Positions 11,931 through 62,191 of a DNA stretch of 64,000 nucleotides are shown in pieces. The notes under the pieces were generated by a model. The model was not told the origin of the DNA, did not search any database, and saw nothing but the letters and a program-made list of their open reading frames with translations. Position numbers and translations under genes: made by a program. Within the stretch, counting starts at the first letter, position 1. Every line of letters begins with the position of its first letter. Source of the stretch: Nemertoderma westbladi. Its lineage: Eukaryota; Animalia; Xenacoelomorpha. Location of the stretch: contig JAUCBJ010007135.1 in the NCBI GenBank assembly GCA_032718475.1, positions 1 to 64,000 of the forward strand. The letters run 5' to 3'.

Positions 11931-11970
11931 AAATGGTCAAAATGTGGGTATCCATAACATAATAATGCCA

Positions 11971-16790: not shown

Positions 16791-16927
16791 AAGTGATAAA
16801 CAAGTGCCAAAATGTACTAGATATAGCAAAAAATATACAAATTTATAACGAAACTGTGAAAGCAAGGCAAATACGTCGAATTTTAAAAGTTTTTTTTACG
16901 TAAGACTAATGTACAAATAGTTATCTA

Positions 16928-18534
16928 TGTTCGCGGTATTTCAACTTTCCATAACGCGAGTTGAATATTTTTGTATTTATTTAAAATTGATTATTCCGAT
17001 ATTACTACTGGGTGCGGGACCATGGGTTTTGGGCACATTCAATAAACTGGGGGCGATTTATGGGCGAACTTTGGGGCAACTTACAGGGTACGGGAATAAT
17101 TTCAAAGTTATAAGGGCCAGGGGGGATGGAAAATGCAAGCAGTATTCAGGTTAGCCTGAGTACTATTAGGCCCTGGCCAACTTCCTGCTGCCTGTAGGGG
17201 TGGATTTGGTAATGCGCCAGGCCTAAAGGACAAGGACTGCCCTTAGCGGTCCCTGGCCAACGGCAGCTACTACGAGACTGAAAAGAACTCAGAACGCTGA
17301 CTGCTTGTGTCAGGGATTTGCGACGGGCACCGACGGCCCCTTAGTAGCCAAGCCGTTCTGGTTCTCGATGATCGAACCCCGGGGTTCGTGAGGGGTGGAG
17401 CGGACACGCGAACAGGTGGCCAACTAACGACTGCCCCCTGACCTAAGCCGTACTGGTTCTCGATGACCGATCCCTTCGGGGTTCGTGAGGGGTGGGACGG
17501 ACATGCGAAATGGCTGGCCACAGGACTGGTTTGACAAGGACTGCCCTTAGCGGTCTCGGGTCAACGGCAGCTACTACGAGCCTGAAAAGAACTTGGAACG
17601 CTGACTGCTTGACTGGGATTTGCGACGGGAACCGACGACAGAACCCTTGGCCAAGCCGTTCTGGTTCTCGATGATCGTTCCCTTCGGGGTTCGTGAGGGG
17701 TGGAACGGACACGCGATGGGGTCGAAAGACAAAGGACTAGACTCGACTAGACTCTACTGGCCTACCGACTGTTCGGAGCAGTTTCTCGGCTGCCGAAGCG
17801 ACTACGAGCCTGAAACGGACTCGGAAAGCCTAGGTGGTTGGGTTTCTGTGATGAACTGACGGACCCCTAGCCAAGCCGTTCTGGTTCTCGATGATCGAAC
17901 CCTTCGGGGTTCGTGAGGGGTGGAACGGACACGCGAACGGGTCCACCGACACGACAGACTCCTAGCCAAGCCGTACTGGTTCTCGATGACCGAACCCTTC
18001 GGGGTTCGAGAGGGGTGGTACGGATACGCGACAGAGTCTACCGACTGGACCGACCCTTAGCCAAGCCGTGCTGGTTCTCGATGATCGTTCCCTTCGCGGT
18101 TCGTGAGGGGTGGAACGGACACGCGACAGGGTCGACCGACACCGACACTACGGTACTAGGACTAGGACCGAGGGAAAATCTGGGGAACATTAGGTAGGCT
18201 AAAATTCTGAGCGAACAGCGGGTTATTAAATAATATACCGTAGGGATTTATATTATCGTGTATACTTATTGTGAATATTTGGTGTATATTGATTTGGGGA
18301 AGCCCAAAATTATTCTTAAACAAGTTTCAATATTGTTGAACAAGGTTCAACAGAGTTCAGTTACATTAAAGAGTATATCCAACTAATGCAGCTTTTCTCA
18401 ACCGCAAACTTGCATCTTAGAAAATATTCCCTCCCCACAATCAATATCCGGTGACTGGCCGGGGCTCGGTGGTCTGTTAAGTCACGTCTCCAGCATCGGC
18501 GTTTTTCCCCCCTGGTGTAGGAATAACGGCAACA
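16928..18534 (+). repeat. BEL-1 5' LTR (1607 bp)
   Basis: tgttcgcggt...aacggcaaca; matches 29470-30513. Confidence 0.95.
17335..18134 (+). ncRNA. Array of six structured RNA hairpin units (K-turn + UUCG) in the LTR
   Basis: Cores start at 17348, 17443, 17651, 17871, 17966 and 18061. Adjacent units are 95 nt apart. Covarying stems. Confidence 0.7.
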
Positions 18535-18744
18535 AAATTAAGAATAATTATCGTGGTCAACTTCAACTGGTGGAAGTTGAGAATCCTTCAATACTTCAAA
18601 AACTCTCTACGTGCTTGCCAGCACCCACTACGAGGAAACTCTGGTATTTGAGTTGAGACAAAGTCGTGGTTTAATTAATCAGCAAACTCGATCTAACCAA
18701 CTCATAGTCGGCAGATCACATATTTGGAGAGTTGTTAACAGGGA

Positions 18745-18936
18745 ATGGAAGTATCGATCACACCCATTGATATAATTCAAGTTGAGCCAGGAATCTGGCA
18801 CGTCGAAGTTGAGGTACAAGGAACGAACGTCGGACGATTCAGGATTACTGTTCGGGTGGTTCAAGCTGAGTACAATACCTACGATGAACTGTTTTACGAC
18901 ATCGCGTATCTCGCCATCGACGAGGCGTTACAATGA
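18745..18936 (+). CDS. Small upstream ORF (63 aa) overlapping the gag start (ATGA)
   Basis: ATG-initiated. Its TGA overlaps the gag ATG at 18933-18936. No recognised homology. Confidence 0.4.
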   Translation: MEVSITPIDIIQVEPGIWHVEVEVQGTNVGRFRITVRVVQAEYNTYDELFYDIAYLAIDEALQ

Positions 18937-21554
18937 CAACAAATAACGTATCCGATACCGACGAGATGGATCACCACACAGACTCGGAAGCCGACGAGGT
19001 ACCAAACGTCAAAAACATGACCCGTCGGTTAGGGGCTCTTAAAGGCGGAGTAACCCGAGCGTATCAACGGATGGAGAAACAACTCAAGGGAGTCAAAACC
19101 CCCCTCAATGAGGTACAAACTCAGCTTCAAAGTATCCGAAATATCCTACAGCGGTACGAAAGAATGATACAGGCGTACCAAGAGCTTGTTCCCCCCACCG
19201 ATCTGGAAAACTACCCCAAGCTGGAAGAACACGTTGTACATCTAGATGGGTTCCGCAAACAACACCGGAGGACCCTCAGCCTTGTGAGAGGCTATGAGGA
19301 ACAGTATTACAAGAGGGCTGAAAGAACAGACGCGGAATCAGTACGATCCTCCAGCATCAGGACAGGAGTACATCGCAAAAGAATGAGGTCCACCAGAAAT
19401 CAGCACTCCAGCGCTAGGAGCGAGATATCCGGCTCAGCGCGCAGTTCTCAAGGGGCGCCGCCACTCCGAGACCAACTGCGAGAGCGGAAGGCATTAGCCC
19501 TCAAAGCTCGGATGGAAGATGAGTATATTCAACTGCAAGCCGAGCAAGATGTATTAGCTGCAGAAACACAAAGGCGTGAGGCCGAACAAGCGGCCGAACG
19601 GCAGGCCGAACAACGTGAACAGGAAGCCGAACAACGCAGGCGAGAGGACGAACAACGCAAACGAGAGGACGAACGACAGGCCGAACAACGCAAACACGAG
19701 GACGAACGACAGGCCGAACAGCGCAAACACGAGGCCGAACAACGCAAACAGGAGGCCGAACAACGCGGACGAGAGGCCGAACGGGAGATCGAACAACGTA
19801 AATGGGAAGCAGAAATGCGTAAACAACACGCCGAGGCCCAAGCAATTCTCATCCACAAAAAGAACGCGGATATTGCAAAACTCGCGGAATACGAAGCCGC
19901 ACTTATAGAACGAGATATTCAACTCTACGAGGACTGGGAGAGGGATATAGATCAGGAATATGAACCAATCCCGGTACCGGAATTAGAAAAGTCATTTATA
20001 CCGACAGCGGCGAAACTTCCGAAACCCGAAATCCCGCCTACCAAACAGTCTACGCTATCGGCACAAGCACCGGTGTTCCATCCACCACCAGCGACGCTAA
20101 AGAACGAGGAACCTTATTTCCCATCCAACACCACGACAGCGAGTGTACCCAAGTACGAGCCTGAAAAGGACTCGGAACGGGACGCCACTCCCCGATCAAA
20201 CAACCCATTTACATCAACACCACAAACTCGTAGCTGCGTCATTATTAAAACTCCACCTATCATTGATCCATCAAGTATGGGAGTGAGTGCCAATAACTAT
20301 AACCCTCTGAGTCACTCCAGTTCAGACGACGTCAGCATCATCCGGGCGTTGGAGAACCGCCTTGCTATGCCTAAGATGGAGATTCGCACCTTCGAAGGAG
20401 ATCCCGTCGATTACCTCAGATTCAAGAAACGGTTCTTCGCGCAGATCGGATCAACGGACATAGCCGACGCACAGAAATTGGTATATTTATCGCAATACCT
20501 GGGTGACAAACCACGCAGAATTATTGCATGTTTTGAAGGAGGTTCTCATGAGGCATACTATGACGCATGGAAGACTCTAGATAAAAGATACGGAAACACC
20601 GGAACTATAATTAATAAAACTCTAGAGAGACTGATACAGGACGCGGGATCACTAGGGGACCCACAGAACATACAGGAATTCTCCGACTCTATGAAGGATG
20701 CCTACTACACTCTGAAACCCTTAAATAAGGAGGATCAGGTAAACAACATTCTAAACCTCCGACAGATCGCCCGGAAGTTCCCCGGATGGCTACAAAGTAA
20801 GTGGGCTTATAAATGTGTAGATCTCCGGCGCAGACATCCAGATCAAGATCCTAGCTTCCTTGAAATGTCGGCATTCCTGGACGATATCTCCGAAGCCATG
20901 AATGACTCGATGTTTTCAAAACAAAGTCTCGCAAAGTTGGACGGAATGGAGAGCAATTCCAGGAATAAGATAACCCCTCCGAAACCGAGATTCCGCCCCC
21001 CACCGGTAAGTACGATGGCCATCACCATGGCTGAGGATTCCGACGACGAAGACTACGAGGAACCGACATCCGCCGAGGAATGGGCATGTTATCTCGCGAA
21101 TTGGGCCCCCGAAAGGGAAGGCGTCACAAATTCCCTACTCTGTCTCTTCTGTGGGGAGAAACATAAAGTGGAATTCTGCAGGAAGTTTCAGTTCGCCGAA
21201 CTCGTCCCACGTTTCGAGGCGATAATGAAACACCGAGGATGTTTCCGGTGTCTTGGAACAGGTCACTACGTTCGGGATTGCGACCAAAGGTCGTGCTGTG
21301 CTGTCTGTAACGACCAACGCCATCACACGCTCCTCCACATCCCCGCGAACTTCGACTTTACTACCCTCCCCTTTCGGATCGAAGCCAGGCGAAGAGGAGA
21401 AACAAACCACGTCTTCAAAGGAACCCGGACAACCCAACGGAGAGAAACCAACCCGTTTAAAATCTCCACCGCTACACCACAAGTAACAAATATTTCGGCC
21501 ACGATTAATCTTATAAATCGCCGCTACATGGTTTTCTCCAGATGGAAGGAGTGA
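18933..21554 (+). CDS. gag: BEL/Pao Gag
   Basis: Coiled-coil EAEQRK repeats, FEGDPVDY...KLVYLSQYL...AWKTLDKRYG capsid-like region, three Cys/His knuckles (CLFCGEKH, CFRCLGTGH, CAVCNDQRHHTLLH). Confidence 0.92.
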   Translation: MTTNNVSDTDEMDHHTDSEADEVPNVKNMTRRLGALKGGVTRAYQRMEKQLKGVKTPLNEVQTQLQSIRNILQRYERMIQAYQELVPPTDLENYPKLEEHVVHLDGFRKQHRRTLSLVRGYEEQYYKRAERTDAESVRSSSIRTGVHRKRMRSTRNQHSSARSEISGSARSSQGAPPLRDQLRERKALALKARMEDEYIQLQAEQDVLAAETQRREAEQAAERQAEQREQEAEQRRREDEQRKREDERQAEQRKHEDERQAEQRKHEAEQRKQEAEQRGREAEREIEQRKWEAEMRKQHAEAQAILIHKKNADIAKLAEYEAALIERDIQLYEDWERDIDQEYEPIPVPELEKSFIPTAAKLPKPEIPPTKQSTLSAQAPVFHPPPATLKNEEPYFPSNTTTASVPKYEPEKDSERDATPRSNNPFTSTPQTRSCVIIKTPPIIDPSSMGVSANNYNPLSHSSSDDVSIIRALENRLAMPKMEIRTFEGDPVDYLRFKKRFFAQIGSTDIADAQKLVYLSQYLGDKPRRIIACFEGGSHEAYYDAWKTLDKRYGNTGTIINKTLERLIQDAGSLGDPQNIQEFSDSMKDAYYTLKPLNKEDQVNNILNLRQIARKFPGWLQSKWAYKCVDLRRRHPDQDPSFLEMSAFLDDISEAMNDSMFSKQSLAKLDGMESNSRNKITPPKPRFRPPPVSTMAITMAEDSDDEDYEEPTSAEEWACYLANWAPEREGVTNSLLCLFCGEKHKVEFCRKFQFAELVPRFEAIMKHRGCFRCLGTGHYVRDCDQRSCCAVCNDQRHHTLLHIPANFDFTTLPFRIEARRRGETNHVFKGTRTTQRRETNPFKISTATPQVTNISATINLINRRYMVFSRWKE

Positions 21555-24500
21555 TGAAGGGCTACGAAACGGCTAAGTTAACCATAAAGAACGCCTTGGT
21601 ACACACAGACCTCCGGGTGCGGTTCCGACAATCAGCCGAGTACGCCCCCCTCATACAATTGGCCCTGGACGATGTAGACCTGAGGTGTCCGCAGTTGGAC
21701 GTAAACCGTATCACCCTACTGATCGGACTTGATACACCGGAACTACACATCCCCACCGGAGATATCGCCCGATCTATAAACCAGGATGACGGATTTTATG
21801 CTGAACGAACAATAATGGGATGGACACTCTGCGGCATTAAGGAGGAAACCACGGACACCTATACCTACCTTCCCAAATGTCAGATTAAAGAGAATGTAAC
21901 CTCCGTGGGTTACTGCTCAGCTTCGGATCTCGACGAGGATTTGTTTCTGGAAACCGAGAAAACCCAACGAGAGATGACGAAATATTTTAATTTGGAGACC
22001 CAGGAGTTCGCGGAAAAGAACGAAAATCCATCCGAAGAGGACCAATATTGTATGGACGTTCTCGACCAGGCCACGTTTAAAGACGGACACTGGAGTTCAC
22101 CTATGTTATGGAAGGACCCAAACAAACCAATGGCAAACAACGCCAGCATGGCACTTAGGCGACTTAAAGGGATTCTACGCCGGTTGAATGACCAACCCGA
22201 GATAAAGGAGAAATATAATACCGTAATCCAAGGATATCTCAATGATGGATTGGCAGAAATAGTACCACGGAACGAACTGCAAGGTGGTGAAAGAACATAT
22301 TATCTCCCAACCCACTATGTAGTAGAAGCCCGCAAAGGTGGGAAAATCCGAGTGGTAAATGATGCTGCCGCTATGTACCAGGGCGAATCCCTAAACAGTC
22401 AACTTTACACGGGACCCAACATATATAGCACACTCATTGGCGTATTGATCAGGTTCAGGGAAAACCGGGTAGCATTCACCTGTGACATCAAGGCCATGTT
22501 TCATCAAGTTCGTACGTTACCAAGAGACTCGGACTGTCTACGTATCCTATGGACGGATAAAACGCTCACTCAACAGGAGATTAGCCAACTCACGATCAAG
22601 GACGTAGACGTAATGCGTATGGTCGTCAGGATCTTCGGCGCTAAGGACTCGCCGGTAGCATGCAGTGACATGCTAAAGAGGACAGCAACTATGTGCGAAA
22701 ACGAGTTCCCCCCAACCGTCATAGAAACCATTCGACTATGCTTCTACGTGGACGACGGATGCGCCGGCGCGGATAATGTGGATGAGGCATATCGGCTAGC
22801 GATGGGGATGGTAGAATGTCTGAAGAAAGGAGGGTTTCCGCTCGTGAAGTTCAGATCCCACGACAAAACACTTATGGAAAAGTTTCCGGAGGACATCCGG
22901 CTGGAAAATAACAAGATGTATTCGGAGGATGTGGAACATCGTGTACTCGGGATCGAATGGGACATAGAATCCGATGAATTCATCTTCAAATATAAACCCC
23001 TACCCAAGCCTATGACAAAAAGGGGATGTTTGTCGATAAAAAGTGCCATCTTCGACCCACTAAATTTCATATCTCCAGTAACCTTGGCCGGAATGAACCT
23101 GATTAAGGAAATGTGGATAGAAGGACTGGGATGGGACGAAGAGCTTCCCCCATACCTTAGCGTCAAATGGAGAAAATGGACGGAGCAGCTCGAACACCTA
23201 CATCTTATGCGAATACCTAGACCGTTCTTCCTCGATAAACTGCCCACCGATATCTTCCAGCTCCACACCTTTTCGGATGCTTCAAATACCGGAATCGGCG
23301 TAGTAACCTTCCTACGGAGACTAAGTAGCGATGGAAACGGCGATACAAGCTTCTTATTCTCCAAAGCAAAGACAGTATCCGGGGAATTCGTAGCAACGAT
23401 TCCGAGACTCGAGCTACAAGCTGCAGTTTGGGCAGTAAGACAGAATCGCATGGCTATGCGGAACCTACGGATCCCCATAGAATCTCAACACTTCTGGGTA
23501 GATTCGAGTATAGTTCTCTATTATCTCCACTCTCCATCACGGCGTCACACCACGTTTGTTGCAAATCGAGCCACAGAGATTAAACAGTGTACAGGCCGAG
23601 AACAGTGGCATCACGTGAACGGGAAGGGAAACCCAGCGGACTTATCAAGCCGAGGCGCCACCCCAAAACAACTCGGTAAAAGTAAACTCTGGCTTACCGG
23701 CCCGGAATTCCTACGGCAACCACAGTTAACATGGAGTACCCGATTCGACCCCGAACTCGATAGCGGAAAATACTCCGAGGACGATAAAGAGATTCGTAAA
23801 ATCCATCGAAGCAACGCGGTGGAAATTTATAGTTGCCTGACTGAGCCTGCAAAGGACTCGGGCAGGCACTATAACGTCGCGACGATCACTCAACTAGCGA
23901 CGTCTTTACATCGGTTGATCGAGCGAACTTCATCCATGAGACGGCTCGTCCACCACGTTATAACCCTTCGCAACTTCCTACGGTGGAAAAACAACAAACC
24001 GATAGTTCAACGGAATATACAAGAACTCATTATCGCGGAGAAGTGTATTGTTAGATATGTCCAGAAAGAAAGTTTCCCCGATGAATGGGAACAACTTAGT
24101 GCGGGCAAAACGTTGAAACCGGACAGCCCAGTCTACCAACTAAGACCAATGATGGGAGAGGACGGACTGATCCGACTGAATACCCGGATGGCAAACGCCC
24201 CGGTCGAATATGAGGTTAAATACCCGGCGCTTCTGCCCGGAACGTCGACACTAGCTAAGCTATTAATTCTACAATGTCACGAGGACAACCACCACGCAGG
24301 ACAGAATTGGATTATAGCTAATAAAAGACAAAGATATTGGATCACCCACATCCAGCCACTGATCCGGAAAGTGTTGAAACGTTGCTTCACCTGCAGACGT
24401 TACCTAGCGCCACCAATCACCCAAAAGATGGCCGACTTACCAGCCACCCGTCTACAAGCGGATTCCCAGCCATTCTACGTCACCGGGGTGGACTGTTTCG

Positions 24501-25450
24501 GACCGTTCACGGTTATTGAACGACGATCCAACATCAAATGCTGGGGAGCCATCTTCACCTGCCTGAGGTCTAGGGCAATTTACCTAGATATCGTGGTAAA
24601 TCTGACACAACACGCATTCATCAACGCTCTGCGTCGGTTCGTGGCGAACAACGGGACATGCCGCCACATGTATTCCGATAATGGTATAAACTTTGTGGGA
24701 GGAGAAAGGGAACTCAGAGAGGCGATCGAGGGATGGTTTACCGATAACACCGCATCCCAAGTCTGGAAGGAACACCAGATACAGTGGCACTTCCAGACCC
24801 CCTTAGCCCCCCATACGAGCGGGGTATGGGAGAAACTGATCGACCTCGTGAAACGATCCATGCGCGTCGCTCTAGGCGATACCCGGGTAACCCATGACAC
24901 CCTCCGCACAACATTCTGCGAGATCACGGCTACCCTGAACAACCGACCTATTGTCCCTATCCGCGACGACCCCACAGACCTGGAGCCCCTCACTCCTAAC
25001 CACCTACTGGGGAGACCCAAAACCCACCTCCTCCCGGAAACCATGTTCCCGGATCCCAACGAGATCACGAAACATACAAACTGGAAAAAGGCCCAAGCGT
25101 TGGCAGCGCATTGGTGGAGAATTTGGGCCCAGGAATACCTCATAACCCTCCGGACCAGGAGGAAATGGAACAACACCTACCGGAACGTCGCAGTTGGCGA
25201 CATGGTGCTAGTTAAAGAAGATCTCAAAGACCGCGTTCACTGGCCTGTGGCGCGGGTCGTGACCATACACCCAAGCAAAGACGGACTTGCGAGGACTGTG
25301 ACGATACGAACGGCAAAGGGCCACTACCAACGCCCTATCCAGAAGCTGTGCCTTCTTGAAGGCAATGACAGTGGTGATTCTACAAGAGGTGATAAGTTCC
25401 CTACTACGGATCCTGCTGCAGACATTGGTGACAATTACAAAACCGTGTAA
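21542..25450 (+). CDS. pol: BEL/Pao Pol (partial protease, RT, RNase H, integrase)
   Basis: DIKAMFHQV, FYVDD, HTFSDAS, IPRLEL, NPADLSSRG, GVDCFGP, YSDNGINF, GVWEKLI. Protease DSG motif not found. Confidence 0.95.
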   Translation: MEGVMKGYETAKLTIKNALVHTDLRVRFRQSAEYAPLIQLALDDVDLRCPQLDVNRITLLIGLDTPELHIPTGDIARSINQDDGFYAERTIMGWTLCGIKEETTDTYTYLPKCQIKENVTSVGYCSASDLDEDLFLETEKTQREMTKYFNLETQEFAEKNENPSEEDQYCMDVLDQATFKDGHWSSPMLWKDPNKPMANNASMALRRLKGILRRLNDQPEIKEKYNTVIQGYLNDGLAEIVPRNELQGGERTYYLPTHYVVEARKGGKIRVVNDAAAMYQGESLNSQLYTGPNIYSTLIGVLIRFRENRVAFTCDIKAMFHQVRTLPRDSDCLRILWTDKTLTQQEISQLTIKDVDVMRMVVRIFGAKDSPVACSDMLKRTATMCENEFPPTVIETIRLCFYVDDGCAGADNVDEAYRLAMGMVECLKKGGFPLVKFRSHDKTLMEKFPEDIRLENNKMYSEDVEHRVLGIEWDIESDEFIFKYKPLPKPMTKRGCLSIKSAIFDPLNFISPVTLAGMNLIKEMWIEGLGWDEELPPYLSVKWRKWTEQLEHLHLMRIPRPFFLDKLPTDIFQLHTFSDASNTGIGVVTFLRRLSSDGNGDTSFLFSKAKTVSGEFVATIPRLELQAAVWAVRQNRMAMRNLRIPIESQHFWVDSSIVLYYLHSPSRRHTTFVANRATEIKQCTGREQWHHVNGKGNPADLSSRGATPKQLGKSKLWLTGPEFLRQPQLTWSTRFDPELDSGKYSEDDKEIRKIHRSNAVEIYSCLTEPAKDSGRHYNVATITQLATSLHRLIERTSSMRRLVHHVITLRNFLRWKNNKPIVQRNIQELIIAEKCIVRYVQKESFPDEWEQLSAGKTLKPDSPVYQLRPMMGEDGLIRLNTRMANAPVEYEVKYPALLPGTSTLAKLLILQCHEDNHHAGQNWIIANKRQRYWITHIQPLIRKVLKRCFTCRRYLAPPITQKMADLPATRLQADSQPFYVTGVDCFGPFTVIERRSNIKCWGAIFTCLRSRAIYLDIVVNLTQHAFINALRRFVANNGTCRHMYSDNGINFVGGERELREAIEGWFTDNTASQVWKEHQIQWHFQTPLAPHTSGVWEKLIDLVKRSMRVALGDTRVTHDTLRTTFCEITATLNNRPIVPIRDDPTDLEPLTPNHLLGRPKTHLLPETMFPDPNEITKHTNWKKAQALAAHWWRIWAQEYLITLRTRRKWNNTYRNVAVGDMVLVKEDLKDRVHWPVARVVTIHPSKDGLARTVTIRTAKGHYQRPIQKLCLLEGNDSGDSTRGDKFPTTDPAADIGDNYKTV

Positions 25451-25734
25451 CCCTTCTCATCATGTTGACAAACTCTTATAAACTGTGATTTATCGACAAC
25501 GAATTATGGACCCCCCTTAAACCAACTGTAACCACGCAATGGTATTTGTGTTTCCTCGTGTGTTATGTGGAGTCCAGCATCACCCTGCAGATGTTTCGAC
25601 TGACGCAGGGTCGTTTATGTATTGTTTACCCTGATTTTGGTCATCGGGACCAATGATATTGGATTATTGGAAATGGAAAAGATTTGAAGTGGAATTCATT
25701 GTATTCATTGCAGTATGTTATGTTGTCCGTTGCG

Positions 25735-26150
25735 TGCGCAGTTCGGGGCGTAGGCGGTGTAACGAGTCCAGCTGTAGATCCCGGATTGCCGCGCAACACC
25801 CCCTCTATCCCGTTATTCTGGTGGGTCCATGGTGCATCCACGTGACTTCGACGATAGAGGGTTTTATGTTTCTCAGTCGCGTTATTCTGGTGGGACCGTT
25901 ACGTGGATTTTGGGGCGTAGGCGGTGTAACGAGTCCAGCTGTAGATCCCAGAATGTTGCGTAACCCCATCCCACATGACTTCGTCGACTGAGCTTTATGT
26001 TGTTGGGAGTGTTATTCTGGTGGGTCCCTGGTGCATCCACGTGACTTCACTCCTAGCGTCTTCATTGTCCGTTACGTGTGCAGTTTGGGGCGTAGGCGGT
26101 GTAACGAGTCCAGCTGTAGATCCCAGATTGCCGCGTAACACCCCTTCCAC
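25735..26150 (+). repeat. GC-rich interleaved repeats between pol and the accessory ORF
   Basis: ggggcgtaggcggtgtaacgagtccagctgtagatccc x3 and gttattctggtggg x3. Confidence 0.9.
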
Positions 26151-26692
26151 GACAAAGATTAACCAAAGAAAATGATTGAATATAGTTGGAAACGATGAAA
26201 AGGATCAGACAACTCTACTATAAACCTGAATGATGACGCGTATACTGATGAAAATGAAATGATGCGCACCCTGGTGTTGCGCTTATAACAAATGATGATA
26301 GCCGGGGGGCTATAACCCCAATGATGATGTGGAAATAAATAAACGTGAAATAAATGGTGGAAATAAATGTTGAAATATATGTGGAAATAAATGAAATGAG
26401 ATGAAATAATAATGAAATGAAAAAAGACAAAAAAAAGGTATAAAAGAGGTCAAAGAAAAGAATTGGAAAAAAAAGGACAAAAAAGTCATAAAAAACTGGT
26501 TGGATATTATGTATAGCTATAGTAACTGTAAATGCTGAATGTATTAGCAATAAGATGATAGATGTCTATATAGCAATGTTATTTAATAAACTGAATTAAA
26601 TAAAAAACTGAATTATTCTGCGATCGCTATAGTTTCAGACTTTCTGGACTTATAATTAACTGATCTAATTTGTAACGGATATAATCGTAAAT

Positions 26693-27352
26693 ATGGACCC
26701 AAATCGCCAAATTATCGGCGAATTACGTAACACGATAGATCTACTGGAATATTCGCAACCTGGATCCCCTGACTTTGATACAAAGTGGAGCATTCTGCTA
26801 AATGAGAACGTACGAGAAGTTAAATTCACCGGGCGAGAGGGACCGGATTCTAAGAATCTACGAGCCCTCCGGTTAGCCGATGCTAGTACGAGACTGAAAA
26901 GAACTCAGAACGCAAAGGCAACCGGAGGGGACGATTCGTCGTTTTGGGAAACGTTCCGGCAGAGCGTCTACAGATCCCGATGTTTGATCTACGACAACGA
27001 GGGAAACGCGACGCCCACCTCGAAAGCGATTACGTTGGCGAGATGTCAAAGTTTCGTCGACGACAAGAGTACGTACCTCGCCCACTGGGGAAACCTGTCG
27101 GAGTGTACGGCGACGCTTCGAGAGGAACGCGTATCGATTATCCAAAACCGCGACGACTACCAGGAAAAGTACGGGGCGAAAGAATATTGTCGATCCTTAG
27201 TCGTCGTCCTCGGAACCCTGGACGGTTTGGTACTGGTGTGCCGAATATTCACCCAGACACCCGACACCCAGACAGGAAGTGCAGGCAGCCGGAGCGATCT
27301 GGTTGCTGCCTCCGGATATCCAAAAGATCCTCTTCGACTTCGACGTCATTAA
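26693..27352 (+). CDS. Accessory ORF, N-terminal part (ExoI motif of a DEDDy exonuclease)
   Basis: CLIYDNEG fits the ExoI DxE motif. VVVLGTLDGLVLV strands follow. Overlaps the next ORF in the +1 frame. Confidence 0.65.
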   Translation: MDPNRQIIGELRNTIDLLEYSQPGSPDFDTKWSILLNENVREVKFTGREGPDSKNLRALRLADASTRLKRTQNAKATGGDDSSFWETFRQSVYRSRCLIYDNEGNATPTSKAITLARCQSFVDDKSTYLAHWGNLSECTATLREERVSIIQNRDDYQEKYGAKEYCRSLVVVLGTLDGLVLVCRIFTQTPDTQTGSAGSRSDLVAASGYPKDPLRLRRH

Positions 27353-29303
27353 AATCGGGTCGGATATCAAGGCGGACGTCCGGAACGACTACGCGAACGC
27401 TCCCGCAGGAAGAAACCGACGAAACGACCTCAACGCACTTAGCCATTGCATCGACACTCAAACGCTGCTAGCCTGGTTACGATTCGCCGAGTTCATGCGA
27501 GGATTCCAAGAAGTGAGACCGACGAAATCCGGGATCGGCTACCTCGCTGTGCTCAACGGCGGTATCGACTTCAAACCCCAGAAATTCCGGGACTATAATA
27601 AAATATACGGCGGATACCCGGGATTAGAGATAAAGAGCGAGCGAGAGGGTCGATGGAAGGACGTCGATCGGAAGTGGACGATACACCAAAGGTGGGAGAA
27701 TCCCGATCGACGGAGCTATATCTACGTCGTTATGGAATGCTACACCGTCGCTAAGTTTATCTGTAAAACTCTCGATAACCTTATTACGGCGGTCCCCCTT
27801 TCCTTCGTCGACTACGATTGGAACGAGGTTATAAACCATGCGTTTAAAGCGGTCGAGAACATTACACCGGGAGAATCGAAAACACCCGCCGTTATCGATT
27901 CCTGGGACGAGAGCGGACCTTACGACATCCCTACGATTACCGAACTTCTCGGTGCGGAGGAGCCTCTGATCTCCTCGGAAGGGGAAGAGATATGGCTAAA
28001 CGAGGGTGTTCTACTCTCCACCCCGAAGCGACAACTCGAGCCGGAGGCCGCGTACGGACCGGCCGCCAAACGGGTTGCCTCGGCCGAACCGATGAAGAGA
28101 GCAGGCGTCTACACCCCACGCGGCTCCGGTAGCCCCGCGAGAGAGGTAGCCACTACGGCTGCATTGAGCGACTTCGGCGACATATGCCAACGGTTATCCC
28201 CGTATCCTTTCCCGGGCGGCGAAGATTGGTCGTCGGAGATTCCGAGTACCACCCAACAACGGACCCGCTCAGCGATACTGGTCAAGGAAGGCCCCAGCGA
28301 TGCGCCGACACCCGACGATCTCCTCGGTATCCCTCCGTCGAAAACCCCGGCACCTCTTCGCCGACCAGCGGTAGCTACTACACCCGCCGTTCCTCAGGAC
28401 CCTATGCGACTAACCCGTTGGTACGCCGAGCAAACTGAATGGATCCACCGCCAGAAACGGTCGTCCGAGCTGAGACCAGCGGGACACAAAGAGGGTTATC
28501 GAAGCGAGAACATACTACGCAAAAGCCCAGCATTCCGCGGGCTACCGACCACCGAGAATATTCCGAAGAGCGACCGACGACTCGAATACTACGCCGGCGT
28601 CCCGATTCCGATATTCCCCGGTCGAGAGATGCAGTTGGAGGTATGCGGCGACTGCGGTTCGGAGCAGTGCCCACGCAGCAGAAGGAATCGGGTTACCGAT
28701 TCTTGCCTCCAGCTCCTCGGGATACTCAATTGCCCATACTGCGCGACATCGGGCCACGACGTTTCCGTCTGCCCGATTCTTTATAACCTCTGCACCACGT
28801 GCGGTTTCCGTGGACATTCCTCTAGCCCCCGCTGCTATATCAAATGTCCAACCAAAGACGTTACCGCTATGGGAAATATGGTCATGTTTGAAACATACGC
28901 AAACAGCCACTTAAAGACCAAGTTTCGGAGAAACGCTCGGAATATCGCGCAGGAGATGGCGTGCGGATATTTCTCCTTCCCGGAACGCCTCCACACGTCG
29001 GCCTCGCTACTCTTCCATTACGTGGATCTGCTACTGAGCGCCGGATTATTCGGTCCATTCGAAGTTATTAGACGATTATATTCGTATAAAGAGGAGTTCG
29101 GTGACGGAGAATGGTTCCTAGAGGCACGCAACTCCGAGTTGGAAAGACGAACCGACATGATACCGTTGCCTTCGAAAGGAAGAGCCGCCAGGAGACAAGC
29201 CGAAGCGTTACTCACAATGGATGTTGACGCTCCTCTACCAGCCATAGCGATCGATGAGAGTCGAAGGGCGAAGAGACGAAAGGCGTACCAGAAAAAGAAA
29301 TAA
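27279..29303 (+). CDS. Accessory ORF, C-terminal part: WRN/RNase D-like 3'-5' exonuclease, Pro-rich linker, CCHC knuckles, basic tail
   Basis: LPPDIQKILFDFDVIKIGSDIKAD (ExoII), CIDTQ, SGIGYLA, RWENP..YIYVVME (ExoIII-like), CPYCATSGHDVSVC, CTTCGFRGHSSSPRC, RRAKRRKAYQKKK. Confidence 0.75.
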   Translation: MQAAGAIWLLPPDIQKILFDFDVIKIGSDIKADVRNDYANAPAGRNRRNDLNALSHCIDTQTLLAWLRFAEFMRGFQEVRPTKSGIGYLAVLNGGIDFKPQKFRDYNKIYGGYPGLEIKSEREGRWKDVDRKWTIHQRWENPDRRSYIYVVMECYTVAKFICKTLDNLITAVPLSFVDYDWNEVINHAFKAVENITPGESKTPAVIDSWDESGPYDIPTITELLGAEEPLISSEGEEIWLNEGVLLSTPKRQLEPEAAYGPAAKRVASAEPMKRAGVYTPRGSGSPAREVATTAALSDFGDICQRLSPYPFPGGEDWSSEIPSTTQQRTRSAILVKEGPSDAPTPDDLLGIPPSKTPAPLRRPAVATTPAVPQDPMRLTRWYAEQTEWIHRQKRSSELRPAGHKEGYRSENILRKSPAFRGLPTTENIPKSDRRLEYYAGVPIPIFPGREMQLEVCGDCGSEQCPRSRRNRVTDSCLQLLGILNCPYCATSGHDVSVCPILYNLCTTCGFRGHSSSPRCYIKCPTKDVTAMGNMVMFETYANSHLKTKFRRNARNIAQEMACGYFSFPERLHTSASLLFHYVDLLLSAGLFGPFEVIRRLYSYKEEFGDGEWFLEARNSELERRTDMIPLPSKGRAARRQAEALLTMDVDAPLPAIAIDESRRAKRRKAYQKKK

Positions 29304-29458
29304 TGGATTGGGATATTCCAGGAACATTTATCGAACATTTATTTTTATACAAACTCTAGGCCAAATTAATTAAAAACTATGCAATATTAAATTTGGGATT
29401 TTTTATATTGGGAATGACCTACGCAAACTCAATCGACCGACAGACTTCACGAAGGTCA

Positions 29459-29469
29459 TTGGGGGGGAC
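29459..29469 (+). promoter_or_regulatory. Polypurine tract of BEL-1
   Basis: ttgggggggac immediately precedes the TGT of the 3' LTR. Confidence 0.8.
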
Positions 29470-30513
29470 TGTTCGCGGTATTTCAACTTTCCATAACGCG
29501 AGTTGAATATTTTTGTATTTATTTAAAATTGATTATTCCGATATTACTACTGGGTGCGGGACCATGGGTTTTGGGCACATTCAATAAACTGGGGGCGATT
29601 TATGGGCGAACTTTGGGGCAACTTACAGGGTACGGGAATAATTTCAAAGTTATAAGGGCCAGGGGGGATGGAAAATGCAAGCAGTATTCAGGTTAGCCTG
29701 AGTACTATTAGGCCCTGGCCAACTTCCTGCTGCCTGTAGGGGTGGATTTGGTAATGCGCCAGGCCTAAAGGACAAGGACTGCCCTTAGCGGTCCCTGGCC
29801 AACGGCAGCTACTATGAGACTGAAAAGAACTCGGAACGCTGACTGCTTGTGTCAGGGATTTGCGACGGGCACCGACGGCCCCTTAGTAGCCAAGCCGTTC
29901 TGGTTCTCGATGATCGAACCCCGGGGTTCGTGAGGGGTGGAGCGGACATGCGAACAGGTGGCCAACTAACGACTGCCCCCTGACCTAAGCCGTACTGGTT
30001 CTCGATGACCGATCCCTTCGGGGTTCGTGAGGGGTGGGACGGACATGCGAAAGGGCTGGCCACAGGACTGGTTTGACAAGGACTGCCCTTAGCGGTCTCG
30101 GGTCAACGGCAGCTACTACGAGCCTGAAAAGAACTCGGAACGCTGACTGCTTGACTGGGATTTGCGACGGGAACCGACGACAGACCCCTTAGCCAAGCCG
30201 TTCTGGTTCTCGATGATCGTTCCCTTCGGGGTTCGTGAGGGGTGGAACGGACACGCGATGGGGTCGAAAGACAAAGGACTAGACTCGACTAGACTCTACT
30301 GGCCTACCGACTGTTCGGAGCAGTTTCTCGGCTGCCGAAGCGACTACGAGCCTGAAACGGACTCGGAAAGCGAAATGGACCCGCAAACTTGCATCTTAGA
30401 AAATATTCCCTCCCCACAATCAATATCCGGTGACTGGCCGGGGCTCGGTGGTCTGTTAAGTCACGTCTCCAGCATCGGCGTTTTTCCCCCCTGGTGTAGG
30501 AATAACGGCAACA
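29470..30513 (+). repeat. BEL-1 3' LTR (1044 bp, internal deletion)
   Basis: Matches the 5' LTR except for about seven substitutions seen by eye and replacement of 17830-18401 by gaaatggac. Confidence 0.95.
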
Positions 30514-30710
30514 ATCTATAGTGAAATATTTCCACACCATTCCATGAAAACAGTAAGTAAGACTGTTTTCACCAATCAAAATATAAAAATATCAACTAAA
30601 AAATATATCTAATCTAATGTAGGGCCTAAAATATAAAAAATAATCACTGTATAGCCTATTGCATACAAAATATTGCAAATAATACGTAAATATAAAACTT
30701 TAATTTATAC

Positions 30711-30971: not shown

Positions 30972-32531
30972 CCCTATTAGTACCGGGCTATAAAATGTTG
31001 TACAAATACCGGGAGGGGGTCATATTGACCCCCCCCCCTCTAAAATCTACAAATATTTACGAAAACGTCTGATTTTTTGTTTGTACGTAGGTATCACTTG
31101 TCTGGATCCGACCGAAAAAAAAAATTTTCGAAAAAATGTACTGGGGTGGTTATATTGCAGCACAAAAATTACAAGTAGTGCACAATTTTCACAAAATTTG
31201 AAAGTTACATTTTCGGCTAATTATTTTTCAATACAGGTTTTTTGGGGAGCAAAATACATTGGAAAATATTTAAAAATGATATGATTACTATAAATGGCTG
31301 TTTAGTCCTCTCTGCGTAGGAAAAAAATGAAAAAAACAAGTAACCAGCACTTTTCAGTTAGAACACAAAATTTTTAATTCACTTATACGATGCTATAAAT
31401 TCACATTTTCTGGATTTTGAGGGCGCTGATTCTAATGGAATACATTTCTAATATGCCAGATCATTGCTACTTGTATTTTTCGGCGTAATTTAGCAAATTT
31501 TGGTGCTAGCACCAAATTTCGTACCCATCACCAAAAAGTACAAGTTTGCGATGTCCAGTGCTGTTTTTATTGATTCCATCGGATTCAGGACCCTCATAAA
31601 CCCGTATAACGCAAGAAACAAGGTGATACTATCTACTTATCAATTTGCATATTTTCCAAAATTTGGTGCTGGCACAACAATTTTCACCCACCGGCGAAAA
31701 ATACAAGTTTGAGAACTCTTATGAAATTTTTACTGATTCCATTGAATTCAGAACCATCACAAACCCGTATAACGCAAGAAACAAGGTGACACAATCAATT
31801 GATATATTTGATGGTTTTCAAAATTTGGTGCTAGCACCACATTTTGCACCCACATCCGAAAAATAGAAGTTTGAGATGTCTAGTTCGATAATTATATTTT
31901 CCATTGAATTCAGAACAGCCATAAACCTCTAAAACGCAAGAAATAAATTGTCACAAGCAATTTTATATATTGAATGGATTTTCAAAATTTCGTGCTAGCA
32001 CCAAAATTAGCACACAGCACCGAAAAATACAAGTTTGATACGCTTGGTTCAACTCGTATATATTTCATCGAATCCAGAACCTCAAAAAACCCCAATTGCG
32101 TAAAAAACAAGTTTCAAACAATCAATTTACAAAATTGACTTATTTCAAAATTTGGTGCTGGCACCAAAATTTGGCACCCATCGAAAAAAACAAGTTTGAA
32201 ATTTCTAAATCAATTTATATGAATTCCATCCAATTTCTAACACCAAAAAACCGGTGTAAATCAAAAATAGAGATGTTACAATTCATATTTAATGAAATGT
32301 AATTTTCAAAAAACGTCTCAAAAAAGTGCCAAAAGTAGGGTTAAAAAATGGTGCTATAACTCGAAAAGTACCCAATATTTTTGAAAACGGTTTTCACTAC
32401 CATGAAGAGAATAGATTTTTAGGAAAAGTCATAAAATTTCAGATTCCCAACTGCGTTTGTTTCAGAATTATAATAAAAAAACCACGGGGGGGATCATATT
32501 GACCCCCCCCCCCCCCCCGGGTTTAATAGGG
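30972..32531 (+). mobile_element. Non-autonomous piggyBac-type element, copy 1
   Basis: TTAA flanks, CCCTATTA...TAATAGGG ends, subterminal gggggtcatattgaccccc palindromes, internal ~165-bp tandem units, no ORF. Confidence 0.9.
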
Positions 32532-32643
32532 TTAATGGCATAGTTTTTCGAGCGAATGAAATCTTACCCTACACATCTACACCTAAAGAGGTAGTTATTG
32601 GCAGTTCGAGTTCAACGTATACTGATGAATCAATTCCCACAAT

Positions 32644-32895
32644 GGGCTAATTTTGAGTTAGCTCCTTTGAAACGGTTCCGTTTAAAAATGGCTAACTCAG
32701 ACATTAATATCTACAGTATGTAACTCAAAATAATTCAGCAAATTTGAGTTAGCTCCTTTTAAACAGAACAGTTTAAAGGGAGCTAACTCAAAATAATTCT
32801 ACAAATTCTGACTTAGCTCCTTTTAAACGGAAGCATTTAAAGGGAGCTAAATCAAATTCATTACTCAAATAATGAGTTAGCCCCTTTAAACGGTT
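32644..32895. repeat. Tandem hairpin-forming repeats
   Basis: gagttagctccttt alternates with its complement ggagctaactc, about four units. Confidence 0.75.
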
Positions 32896-33059
32896 GATTT
32901 TAAAGTTACGATTTGGTGTGATGACATTAGCTGGAATAAATACATTTTTCTAAAACCCCTCAGCAAAGTCTACTCCTACTCTATACCTCAGCAAAGTATT
33001 CATACTAGATAGCAGATATTACATATAGTACATAGTAGATTATACTGCTGAACAACTGT

Positions 33060-34030
33060 GTTCCTCTAGCAATGAAGTCATTAAAACTGTTAGAGATCTA
33101 ATTAGAGTGATTCTTAGATCCAAGGATTTGACCAGTTGGTTGAGAACCAACCAGGATTTGATGGGTGCAGTGGGCAAAGCAATTACAAACCGCTCCCAAC
33201 TCAAGACCCAGATATTGATGTCTCATGTATATTTGTAACATGTTTAGTTCTCTTGGAGATAGTGGGCTTTGGCGAAACTCATCATAAAACAAATATTTTG
33301 AATGAATCATCACCATTCTTCTACCCTATACTGTCGACCTGTTAGATTCGAGTTTACCAAAGAAAGCAAAGAGAAAATATTGATGGAAAATGATCTTTTA
33401 ACTAAGGATATTGACAAGATTCATCAAACTGTTGTGCAGATCGATGACAAAATGGTTACCATCTTCCACATCACAGAGGTCACCATGTTGGATGGCAAAG
33501 TCCATACCATTATTTCTGATATGTCAGAAAGAACACAAAGCTGTACCTTGTATGGAGCTAAGCCTACTGAAATGAATAATATTGATAGTATAATCGTACA
33601 ACCATTGACTAATGATAACAAAATGCTTCATTGTATATCAACTATCCATCAATGGATAAGATTCCTTGAGTACTTACTGCATATATCGTATCGACTTATC
33701 TTTTGGAGATGGTCATCTTGCAATCCTGTACATGAAAAATTAATGAAGACAGAAAAAAGACGAGTGCAAAAGGAATTCCGAAGTAGACTTGGGCTGAATA
33801 TATATACACCAAGACAATGTGGTGCAGGAATATTCAATCACAGAAACACATATCAGAAGCTGTTCCAGAATACAGAGATCACATCACAAATCTTGCATAT
33901 CAACCAAAAGTTTATTGAACCACTTCATCTGGTACTTATCCAGCTTTGAAGTTGACTCCGCTGCTTTTAAAGCATTTTGTTTGCAGACTGCAAGATATTA
34001 CATGACCCAGTCAATGCATAAGGTCTTAGG
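33060..34030 (+). pseudogene. Transib transposase remnant
   Basis: SSTLYCRPVRF, TMLDGKV, GAKPTEMN, HQWIRFLEYLLHISYRL, LGLNI..PRQ match the Transib/RAG1-core family. Confidence 0.85.
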
Positions 34031-34243
34031 GTCCTTTATGTTAGTTACTTGGTTACAAATACAATATTACAATTGCATAATGTCAATTCAGCTATGCCCA
34101 TTGGCTGTCTTACACACGTTGTCGTCAAAGAACACTTTAACAAAAATGTCTTTGATTTTCAAAAATGTCTTTACACATTTCTCGAGTAAGTAATCTACAA
34201 ATATTAATAACTTCAATTCCAACACATTTCGGCTGTTAATTAA

Positions 34244-35795
34244 CCCTATTAGTACCGGGCTATAAAATGCTGTACAAATACCGGGAGGGGGTCATATTGA
34301 CCCCCCCCTCTAAAATCTACAAATATTTACGAAAACGCCTGATTTTTTGTTTGTACGTAGGTATCACTTGTCTGGATCCGATCGAAAAAAAAAATTTTCG
34401 AAAAAATGTACTGGGGTGGTTATATTGCAGCACTAAAATTACAAGTAGTGCACAATTTTCACAAAATTTGAAAGTTACATTTTCGGCTAATTATTTTTCA
34501 ATACAGGTTTTCTGGGGTGCAAAATACATTGGAAAATATTTAAAAATGATATGATTACTATAAATGGCCGTTTAGTCCTCTCTGCGTAGGAAAAAAATGA
34601 AAAAAACAAGTAACCAGCACTTTTCAGGTAGAACACAAAATTTTTAATTCACTTATACGATGCTATAAATTCACATTTTCAGGTTTTCGAGGGCGCTGAT
34701 TCTAATGGAATACATTTCTAATATGCCAGATCATTGATACTTGTATTTTTCGGCGTAATTTGGCAAATTTTGGTGCTAGCACCAAATTTCGTACCCATCA
34801 CCAAAAAGTACAAGTTTGCGATGTCCAGTGCTGTTTTTATGGATTCCATCGGATTCAGGACCCTCATAAACCCGTATAACGCAAGAAACAAGGTGATACT
34901 ATCTACTGATAAATTTGCATATTTTCCAAAATTTGGTGCTGGCACAACAATTTTCACCCACTGGCGAAAAATACCAGTTTGAGAACTCTTATGAAATTTT
35001 TACTGATTCCATTGAATTCAGAACCATCACAAACCCGTATAACGCAAGAAACAAGGTGACACAATCAATTGATATATTTGATGGTTTTCAAAATTTGGTG
35101 CTAGCACCACATTTTGCACCCACATCCGAAAAATACAAGTTTTAGATGTCTAGTTCGATAATTATACATTCCATTGAATTCAGAACAGCCATAAACCTCT
35201 AAAATGCAAGAAATAAATTGTCACAAGCAATTTTATCTATCGAATGAATTTTCAAAATTTCGTGCTAGCACCAAAATTTGCACACAACACCGAAAAATAC
35301 AAGTTTGATACGCTTGGTGCAACTCGTATATATTTCATCGAATCCAGAACCCCAAAAAAACCCAATTGCGTAAAAAACAAGTTTCAAACAATCAATTTAC
35401 AAAATTGACATAATTCAAAATTTGGTGCTGGCACCAAAATTTGGCACCCACCGAAAAAAACAAGTTTGAAATTTCTAAATCAATTTATATGAATTCCATC
35501 AAATTTCTAACACCAAAAAACCGGTGTAAATCAAAAATAGCGATGTTACAATTCATATTTAATGAAATGTAATTTTCAAAAAACGTCTCAAAAAAAGTGC
35601 CAAAAGTAGGGTTAAAAAATGGTGCTATAACTCGAAAAGTACCCAATATTTTTGAAAACGGTTTTCACTACTAGGAAGACAATAGATTTTTAGGAAAAGT
35701 CATAAAATTTCAGATTCCCAACTGCGTTTGTTTCAGAATTATAATAAAAAAACCACGGGGGGGGTCATATTGACCCCCCCCCGGGTTTAATAGGG
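34244..35795 (+). mobile_element. Non-autonomous piggyBac-type element, copy 2
   Basis: Near-identical direct copy of 30972-32531 with its own TTAA flanks. Confidence 0.9.
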
Positions 35796-36609
35796 TTAAG
35801 TGAAAATATCAAGTATTTCTTTACGTCCTATTCTTATGCTTTGTTTCACCTAAATAACAGCTAAAAAGTGAGAATCACCTCATCCTTCAGAACCTCAAAG
35901 CGGGAATTAAGACGAAATCTCATACGGTTACTATAGATTATGGACGGGGAAGCCAATACTTCAAGCCCTTGTCATACTTATATCATATCATTCAGGCTTG
36001 CTTACCTGAGTGACCATGGCCTATTTGTTGCAGTTTAACTTAACGCGGCTATTCAGCCATTGCCTTCAACTAATTTTCAATGTTCTTATTGGTTGTACAG
36101 TACCGTAGTCGTAGAAGCATTTTATTATTAATTGAATGCTGGTCGTTGGGTAGGCTATTATTCAAAGACTTGGGGTCATTCCTCCCTCCAGACGTATAAT
36201 TACTTTGTATTGCGATGTCAATAACAATATTCTTGTGTCTCCATATTAATATCATATTATTTCAACCAACCGGCTTTGTATTATATTCATTTGGTATGGT
36301 TTAACCTTGACTTTCTAGTTAAGTTATTATTATTATTTAGTGTTTAGTTTTGTATTCCAGTATTATTATAGTTTGTTTATTCATAGGCCTAAATATTATA
36401 TGCTTTATTATAGAGAAGTCACATTATCCATAATTAATGGCTGTTCGCAATCGAATATATTAAAGTGTTTTGGGACCAGGGACGATTACAAGAAAGGTAA
36501 TTTATTTATTATAATCCCGTATATAATTACTACGTAGCTAGACTTACTATAAGAAGGCTTAACTTATTAATTAACTTATTATTTAAATTCATTTACTCAG
36601 GTTTAATCA

Positions 36610-45735: not shown

Positions 45736-45902
45736 TCTAACGATTAATCTAACGATTATCTAACGTGTTTACCTAACGAACTTCGCAATATACGAGGGAA
45801 GCGTCTGTTTGTAAATAAGTTAAAAGCTCATCTACTTAATTCAGATGGCCTATCTGCTTCGTAGTCACATATTTTTTACGTTTCTCCTAATAATATATAT
45901 TA

Positions 45903-62113: not shown

Positions 62114-62191
62114 CGAAGGGGTGATTTCGAGAACAGGCCTAATTATTTCAGGCTCATCTACTATAGTAGGGAGTCTTTCTATTTTAATTAT

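Follow-up and report, generated by a model that had tools for sequence, protein, structure and literature searches.

What a BEL/Pao long terminal repeat (LTR) retrotransposon gains from a third open reading frame (ORF3) in the env position, and what kind of protein that frame encodes, are the questions raised by a locus of Nemertoderma westbladi. The window is the whole 64,000-nucleotide (nt) stretch analysed here, positions 1 to 64,000 of contig JAUCBJ010007135.1 on the forward strand, and all coordinates are window-based. A preliminary description made from the letters of this DNA had proposed that ORF3 encodes a DEDDy 3′-5′ exonuclease fused to zinc knuckles and that the same element bears structured RNA arrays. 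ORF3 appears to be a real accessory gene that is apparently under selection, and its middle domain very probably has a DEDDy fold; a function in counter-defence against host RNA silencing is put forward more tentatively. Animal retrotransposons have yielded few genes of counter-defence so far, and the role of the nuclease ORF3s of rotifer elements is still open.

An accessory gene in the env position

ORF3 extends from 26,693 to 29,303 (2,611 nt, 870.3 codons), between the end of pol (25,450) and the polypurine tract (PPT; 29,461-29,468), in agreement with the roughly 870 codons first described there. The motifs also lie where they had been placed, with ExoI (YDNE) at 26,990, ExoII (KIGSDIKAD) at 27,351, ExoIII (YVVME) at 27,723, knuckles of the form CX2CX4HX4C at 28,731 and CX2CX4HX5C at 28,791, and a KRRK tail at 29,271; a third, degenerate Cys motif, from 28,644, stands ahead of the two knuckles. 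The gene has no intron. The reading of this region as a gene holds, but not as a single open frame, as the window copy has two overlapping frames, 26,669-27,352 and 27,201-29,303, and a short insertion near 27,250 accounts for the shift between them. ExoI lies in the first frame and ExoII, ExoIII and the knuckles in the second, and the two pieces were analysed separately.

Because contigs of other copies mostly lack the insertion near 27,250, the family as a whole most likely has an uninterrupted ORF3, the break being particular to the window copy. Contigs without the lesion account for 7,036 of 7,534 units of contig depth in public run X2, 104 of 104 in X4 and 4.1 of 4.1 in X6, and are thus the majority in three of four runs; the figure for X1, which additionally shows loose contig ends near the lesion, is 2,187 of 5,769. 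One further indel, of 4 nt, occurs in part of X4. A programmed -1 frameshift at the break was considered and rejected, since the shift is +1 and is absent from other copies. Contig cover over ORF3 is as even as that over gag and pol, with the provisos that summed contig depth is not copy number and that the public runs were retrieved using a stretch that includes ORF3.

Variation among copies gives a sign of purifying constraint on ORF3, a rough one given a sample biased to well-supported sites among related copies. The 40 best-supported of 138 listed variant sites were used, and two were dropped as lying outside coding codons (stop codon and untranslated region). The remaining best-supported 38 comprise 22 synonymous and 16 nonsynonymous changes and create no stops. 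The observed transition bias predicts 29.5% synonymous (about 11 of 38; p 2.5e-4), and the pN/pS is about 0.30. A dN/dS near 1 had been named beforehand as a refuting outcome; the rough pN/pS supports selection. None of the 38 sites touches the five motif codons, and a stop-codon variant, one among those listed, leaves the stop intact. By the same method, 10 of 15 changes in gag and 5 of 13 in pol are synonymous. Among the 12 best-supported of 84 indels across the element, 10 are non-coding, one is at the pol stop, and one is the ORF3 lesion.

The ORF3 protein

Much of the evidence for a DEDDy exonuclease comes through a second protein. A HMMER search over 1.84 billion representatives with the nuclease region returned a single match (E 8.6e-5), designated P0001, a singleton of 648 amino acids on a 9,449-nt ENA contig. 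The nuclease regions of ORF3 and P0001 are 33% identical (E 9e-14), and although the query was the nuclease region only, the zinc region and C-terminal domain also align at 29% identity (E 3e-10). The domain order is the same in both, namely exonuclease, linker, three zinc motifs and C-terminal domain. The motifs of P0001 read I-D-V-E, K-V-G-S-N-I-K-A-D and Y-I-Y-C-E, so that the D-E-D-E residues and the ExoIII Tyr are common to the two proteins, as is the Glu at ExoIII, a potential natural active-site variant. ORF3 has the ExoII Asp of the DEDDy (PF01612) group, and its ExoI D-x-E, present with an insertion of about 60 residues, is the sole D-x-E of the N-terminal piece and stands in ungapped register with that of P0001 (7 of 16 identities); for the 13 residues before it, an equal score was reached in 326 of 100,000 random draws. 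In a divergent X4 contig part of the insertion stretch is replaced.

Profile comparisons, although the matches are weak, agree with this assignment. Two bacterial sets supplied the reference profiles, one of 28 RNase D domains and one of 41 short PF01612 proteins that stand alone, and a two-row alignment, A1, was scored against the RNase D, short PF01612 and pooled profiles. A1 scored 32.7 against RNase D (maximum of 40 shuffles, 23.7), 31.8 against the pooled profile (maximum of 40 shuffles, 21.2) and 21.2 against the short PF01612 set (shuffle maximum, 20.7), and the pooled alignment keeps four features in register, namely ExoI, ExoII, the DTQ motif and the helix after it. P0001 alone scored 33-35 against bacterial PF01612 profiles, with none of 25 shuffles above 21.2, and its ExoI aligns to the D-T-E of these profiles. 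PF01612 is the sole Pfam row for the P0001 nuclease stretch (E 0.042; 14.1 bits against a cut-off of 23.6). In the language-model (Atlas) search, all 30 matches of the ExoII-ExoIII piece were PF01612 clusters (best 0.91), and P0001 matched first a PF01612 plus zf-CCHC cluster, mostly of Euglenozoa (0.86), and then an EXD1-like cluster (0.77). A WRN-type assignment was not favoured, as the RNase D profile fits, although the set compared with it consisted of short PF01612 proteins and not of true WRN proteins.

A number of results weigh against this identification. The ORF3 exonuclease pieces have no match in Pfam, NCBIfam or PADLOC and only chance-level rows in PHROGs; an hmmsearch of the window pieces against the bacterial profiles was negative, and in direct scoring they do not clearly beat shuffles (for piece B, 2 and 4 of 25 were as high), so that the DEDDy call is transitive through P0001. 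An Atlas value of 0.9 is also attained by 4-10 in 100 shuffled proteins, and the counts of shared features (145-154 and 163) fall below the guide value of 170. Relative to P0001, the ORF3 ExoI requires its roughly 60-residue insertion; the ExoII-ExoIII spacing is 120 and 103 in the ORF3/P0001 pair, compared with 70 in RNase D. Two AlphaFold2 models reached a pLDDT of 34 and 36, and Foldseek with the second, from this low-confidence pair, returned nothing at E<=0.001. No PDB sequence match was obtained for a window piece or for A1. What had been described as a non-env DEDDy exonuclease with knuckles is therefore supported by profile and language-model searches, and not by a curated match or a predicted fold. 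On motif grounds the putative nuclease is best called RNase D-like and not a canonical member, because both proteins carry Y-x3-E at ExoIII in place of the canonical Y-x3-D; a domain match for the HRDC that follows the exonuclease in RNase D and Rrp6 proper was obtained in neither ORF3 nor P0001.

Among PDB sequences, the knuckles of P0001 have matches in HIV-1 nucleocapsid chains (E 1e-4) and in AIR2 (E 0.064). A derivation of the ORF3 knuckles from the element's own gag was rejected, there being no tblastn similarity at E<=1. The view that ORF3 is not env is upheld, as no signal peptide is visible by eye at its N-terminus, a Pfam scan gave no env family match, and no transmembrane helix was accepted. 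A single 19-residue window reaches a hydropathy of 2.08, and it is probably not such a helix, because the aligned P0001 segment falls, by the RNase D alignment, in the beta-strand region after ExoI.

Relatives of ORF3 were sought widely. Word-based homolog searches confirmed none of 586 candidates of 385-1,225 amino acids and none of 1,122 of 99-382 amino acids, and a further one returned, among 11 candidates, only P0001 itself. Locus scans for ORF3 and P0001 in viral, metagenome and prokaryote collections gave no confirmed relative; in phages and plasmids there were chance matches or none, and in 401 bacterial genomes one weak match. A pol-based scan found no relatives among viral contigs and 80 distant BEL loci in metagenomes, 31-40% identical. 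The end of pol is included in 69 of these loci, and in 18 the sequence continues for 2.5 kb or more beyond it, a count that takes in a few loci where the downstream part is another gag-pol; the 12 downstream ORFs scanned encode gag, belong to unrelated families or have no match. Among ORFs after pol in four of the loci (L035:5221-6348, L066:7879-8982, L041:7321-8454 and L008:9371-10258), one is an AstE/AspA deacylase, one has a DUF3504 domain, and two have no Pfam match.

Structured RNA and priming

The claim that the element carries structured RNA arrays was borne out, as type A and motif B (Table 1) are non-random against shuffles. Type A is present in six copies in the 5′ LTR and three in the 3′ LTR (29,877-30,274), nine matches that compare with none in 100 shuffles, and the number of units seems variable among copies, as judged from contig joints. 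Folding z scores of three type A copies are -2.8, -2.3 and -0.5, two of the three beating shuffles, and 5 of 29 consensus pairs show a double change, in the outer stems. Since 25 of 500 shuffles reach this covariation score, the signal is modest. The internal motif presumably resembles a kink-turn; tandem GA pairs are invariant, the next pair is variable, but energy prediction gives a fold with a 5-nt bulge.

Motif B occurs eight times in the window, where none is expected, with three copies in each LTR and a single copy each in gag and ORF3. As it is read in phase 0 in gag and phase 2 in ORF3, it is preserved at the level of the nucleic acid rather than the protein. The letters of its lower stem vary and pairing is kept, with 86% of cells paired in five sequences and none of 500 shuffles as high; we take its internal loop to resemble an S-turn. 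It was found in none of 235 loci and in no viral contig. The type C units did not fold beyond chance (z values in Table 1). A comparison of 13.8 kb with Rfam gave no match for the arrays and one chance row (E 2.7), and a ribozyme reading was rejected for want of Rfam support.

No tRNA primer site of the TGG type adjoins the 5′ LTR. The element looks self-primed in the manner of Tf1, to judge from a 12-nt complementarity between the LTR and a site just past it, a match that 4 of 5,000 shuffles reach, as does 1 of 672 AT-rich control positions. If the element is self-primed, the hairpin arrays belong to U3 and so lie at the 3′ end of the genomic RNA. The self-primer complement (18,308-18,319) falls in a block that is absent from the 3′ LTR of the window copy. 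A hairpin lies at 18,553-18,580, right after the candidate primer site, and X1 and X2 contigs have different letters there that can likewise form a hairpin, as judged by eye. Among the distant BEL loci, L003, L011, L026, L041, L066, L068 and others lack a TGG immediately past their apparent 5′ LTR, the boundaries of which are rough.

Possible function and alternatives

LTR elements replicate without an enzyme of this kind, and a retained nuclease therefore more plausibly acts in conflict with the host. The reading tentatively preferred, with rather less than even confidence, is that ORF3 is a knuckle-fed RNase D-type 3′-5′ exoribonuclease serving as a counter-defence against host RNA silencing. 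The protein would be expressed from a spliced subgenomic RNA, using the candidate acceptor at 26,638, and its basic stretches would direct it to the nucleus. The zinc knuckles would grip single-stranded RNA and pass its 3′ end into the exonuclease active site, which would trim unprotected 3′ ends such as those of immature small RNAs, slicer fragments and host-added tails on element RNA, while the structured RNA of the element itself would resist trimming. Spliced expression, nuclear location and the unprotected-end substrate are the steps with the least support. Catalytic activity with Glu at ExoIII is predicted and fairly likely.

A functional parallel is the mitochondrial RNase D of Trypanosoma brucei, TbRND, in which deletion of the zinc-finger domain sharply lowers cleavage and RNA binding, the latter being nearly abolished (PMC7797062); by analogy, we infer that the ORF3 knuckles raise RNA binding and cleavage. 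The proposal must be set against the strong impairment of TbRND by D230A (PMC7797062), and a literature search on Glu substitution at ExoIII found no paper. The rotifer DEDDy ORF3s showed no evident association with copy number and are still targets to which small RNAs map (PMC5408684).

An active exonuclease might instead process the RNA of its own element, the knuckles docking on the hairpins and the enzyme trimming back to the structured block. A transcription start near 18,308 would then put the arrays in U3, within the 3′ untranslated part of the genomic RNA, as possible stops, and motif B, found in five distinct contexts that include gag and ORF3 in different phases, keeps its lower-stem pairing despite letter changes, and type A shows double changes in its outer stems; Rodriguez et al. 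also proposed 3′-end processing of element RNAs (PMC5408684). Such self-processing is nevertheless judged fairly unlikely, as the hairpins could equally be packaging sites for Gag or sites for host proteins, the type A covariation is modest and comes from related copies, and no related lineage with ORF3 or the arrays was found among the 80 BEL loci, or with motif B among the 235 loci. A more elaborate scheme would be a matched module, in which the D-E-D-E exonuclease and knuckles read an S-turn/GNRA hairpin as self and trim unmarked or host-tagged RNA ends, with kink-turn-like LTR arrays adding host L7Ae-family proteins. If true, it would be a protein-RNA module for self/non-self RNA counter-defence in a retrotransposon; it is distinctly doubtful. 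All 80 distant BEL loci have neither ORF3 nor motif B.

The nuclease could also be weak or dead and ORF3 an RNA adaptor that binds the hairpins through its knuckles and the pseudo-nuclease, serving in export in the manner of Rev, in packaging, or as a decoy to trimming enzymes of the host. The replaced ExoIII Asp, the long insertions in the domain, the basic stretches resembling nuclear localization signals (NLS) and the EXD1-like match of P0001 all suit an adaptor, and inactive DEDD derivatives such as EXD1 and Maelstrom retain RNA binding (PMC5408684). An adaptor is nevertheless unlikely. Two proteins just 33% identical have both retained the ExoIII Tyr and four acidic residues, and dead DEDD domains usually lose their carboxylates. 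That the middle domain is not DEDDy at all, or that the element took ORF3 from its host and carries it as a neutral passenger, would accord with the absent curated family match, the lack of a usable structure model and the roughly neutral variation of rotifer ORF3s within a genome (PMC5408684). Both are improbable in view of several concordant profile signals (Atlas, the PF01612 row and the RNase D profiles), the synonymous excess, the few indels, the absence of an intron and the existence of P0001 with the same layout. It is more improbable still that ORF3 finishes the self-primer, trimming an overhang back to the duplex once the RNA 5′ end has paired with the primer-binding site and been cut, and so giving reverse transcriptase a paired 3′ end, for Tf1 priming needs only RNase H. 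In favour of primer trimming, a tRNA site is absent beside the LTR and the 12-nt complement at 18,308-18,319 lies in priming orientation, as in Tf1/Tj1 (PMC4600332). The element supplies candidate RNA ligands of its own, making binding and trimming directly assayable.

Relation to known systems

The bdelloid rotifer elements Juno and Vesta are Ty3/gypsy retrotransposons. Their ORF3s are of the RNase D-like DEDDy type, the tetrad reading DEED (PMC5408684), as are those of Athena/Terminon (PMC6431247, PMC5718144), so that the precedent mentioned in the preliminary description stands for rotifers (PMC5408684); for the nematode elements it had also named, the literature search gave none, and Cer1 is not mentioned in PMC5408684. 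The ORF3 described here resembles those of Juno and Vesta as a non-env enzymatic gene after pol that is RNase D-like, with an altered tetrad and no transmembrane segment (PMC5408684). It differs in its BEL/Pao carrier, in a D-E-D-E tetrad in place of DEED, and in its long linker, three zinc motifs and C-terminal domain, only a Cys-His-Cys motif being mentioned for some Vesta ORFs; the comparison is one of published descriptions, not of sequences.

TbRND likewise joins a DEDDy domain to C-terminal RNA-binding zinc fingers that boost cleavage, but it is a cellular gene with four fingers, a canonical DEDD and a demonstrated preference for U-tails (PMC7797062), whereas ORF3 carries Glu at ExoIII and its three motifs follow the nuclease at a distance of about 260 residues. 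The shared architecture may be convergent, as none of the 19 PDB sequence matches of P0001 is a DEDD chain. Knuckles also deliver RNA to an RNase D-family enzyme in the case of Rrp6 with the Air1/2 adaptors, which are separate cellular proteins, and ORF3, unlike Rrp6, has no HRDC match. Dada DNA transposons provide another transposon-borne DEDDy exonuclease, which differs in lying inside the DDE transposase, in keeping the four DEDD residues and in its proposed action on DNA ends (PMC3706591). The apparent primer-binding site is complementary to the element's own LTR and not to a tRNA, as in Tf1/Tj1, which belong to a different superfamily and for which the available text describes no exonuclease ORF3 (PMC4600332); priming is proposed here from complementarity alone.

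A BEL/Pao exonuclease ORF3 was not found in the literature, supplements and Repbase entries lying outside the search, and the available portions of PMC3601003, PMC13269885, PMC7998251 and PMC6338049 held nothing on BEL/Pao nucleases. The theme is known, and what is new is the BEL/Pao carrier, the D-E-D-E site, the combination of triple knuckle and C-terminal domain, and the hairpin motifs. Nuclease ORF3s would thereby extend to a second LTR superfamily, with an RNA-binding module and signs of purifying selection.

The element and its family

The element spans 16,928-30,513, has TG...CA termini and is flanked on both sides by ATCTA; its features are collected in Table 1. It is a BEL/Pao (Belpaoviridae) LTR retrotransposon, because DUF1759 in gag and Peptidase_A17, Integrase_H2C2 and DUF5641 in pol all exceed the Pfam cut-off. 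The order of reverse transcriptase (RT), RNase H and integrase fits BEL, and paired TG...CA LTRs, a 5-bp duplication and a PPT are all present. The LTRs are 99.3% identical (7 mismatches in 1,036 aligned nt, blastn).

Table 1. Coordinates of the features of the BEL/Pao element (window positions)
Feature	Position	Strand	Description	Basis or remark
5′ target-site duplication	16923..16927	+	ATCTA	identical 5 letters at 30,514-30,518; empty-site joint 16,927->30,520 (X1, X2)
5′ LTR	16928..18534	+	TG...CA, 1,607 nt, contains hairpin arrays	blastn against 3′ LTR
Motif B	17271..17826	+	24 nt, three 5′ LTR copies; GAAA-capped hairpin above A(G/C)UA/GAA internal loop	
Type A array	17335..18142	+	six copies of a 95-nt unit; nested stems mostly UUCG-capped, GAU-GA...GA internal motif	
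Candidate self-primer	18308..18319	+	exact complement of 18,538-18,549	12-nt match
Candidate primer-binding site	18538..18549	+	3 nt past LTR	complementarity, sequence
Upstream ORF	18745..18936	+	63 codons, stop overlapping gag ATG (ATGA)	sequence
gag	18933..21554	+	DUF1759, three Cys/His motifs	Pfam; motif B copy at 20,154-20,177
pol frame	21509..25450	+	RT motif, Peptidase_A17, Integrase_H2C2, DUF5641	Pfam
Type C units	25735..26143	+	three near-identical hairpin units in pol-ORF3 spacer	z -1.2, +1.2, -0.5
Candidate splice acceptor	26633..26638	+	TTTCAG, 55 nt upstream of ORF3 ATG	inferred from sequence
ORF3, N-terminal piece	26693..27250	+	ExoI D-x-E (D 26,993, E 26,999)	motif B copy at 26,887-26,910
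ORF3, predicted exonuclease core	27260..27860	+	ExoII Asp (27,375), DTQ motif, ExoIII Y-x3-E (27,723-27,737)	
ORF3, linker	27861..28643	+	acidic, then Pro-rich, basic PKRQ stretch	sequence; low-complexity linker likewise placed in P0001
ORF3, zinc region	28644..29036	+	three Cys/His zinc motifs (28,644; 28,731; 28,791) and conserved C-terminal domain	P0001 match
ORF3, tail	29271..29303	+	basic NLS-like tail and stop	sequence
Polypurine tract	29461..29468	+		sequence
3′ LTR	29470..30513	+	1,044 nt, without ~570 nt of 5′ LTR (17,830-18,401)	blastn

The overlap of the upstream ORF with gag suggests coupled translation; the ORF has no match in PADLOC, the sole library scanned with it. No Pfam match to an aspartic protease precedes the RT in the window copy, and other family copies in public-run contigs carry extra sequence at 21,536, the gag-pol junction, so that the window copy is probably defective there. 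In runs X1 and X2, thousands of short contigs lie across the whole element and a joint spans the empty site; the family is therefore young and abundant, and the insertion in the window is not fixed.

In X1 and X2 a joint skips most of the integrase core, 24,199-24,983, and points to an amplified deletion derivative. Run X4 covers 16,800-30,700 unevenly, with zero depth in part of the RT and high depth over the pol-ORF3 spacer. Its contigs include a joint 27,758->28,917 that stays in frame, and a loose end at 26,437 is rich in A. This pattern could reflect deleted derivatives or an RNA library, the kind of X4 being merely guessed as DNA.

Other features of the window

A second BEL/Pao element lies on the minus strand at 55,733-63,655, with a pol 38% identical to that described above and a frame of 2,152 amino acids, preceded in frame, after one stop, by a repetitive stretch of 487 amino acids; no ORF of at least 150 amino acids follows its pol. 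An uninterrupted GPCR-like frame (weak Srsx match) and several other RT or integrase remnants occupy 5,304-6,590, 8,731-12,001, 13,467-14,666 and 43,859-45,743. Tandem repetition is also present (31,031-35,800; 45,850-46,635), in the form of a duplication of about 3.27 kb that contains 163-nt repeats and of an array of 52-nt units.

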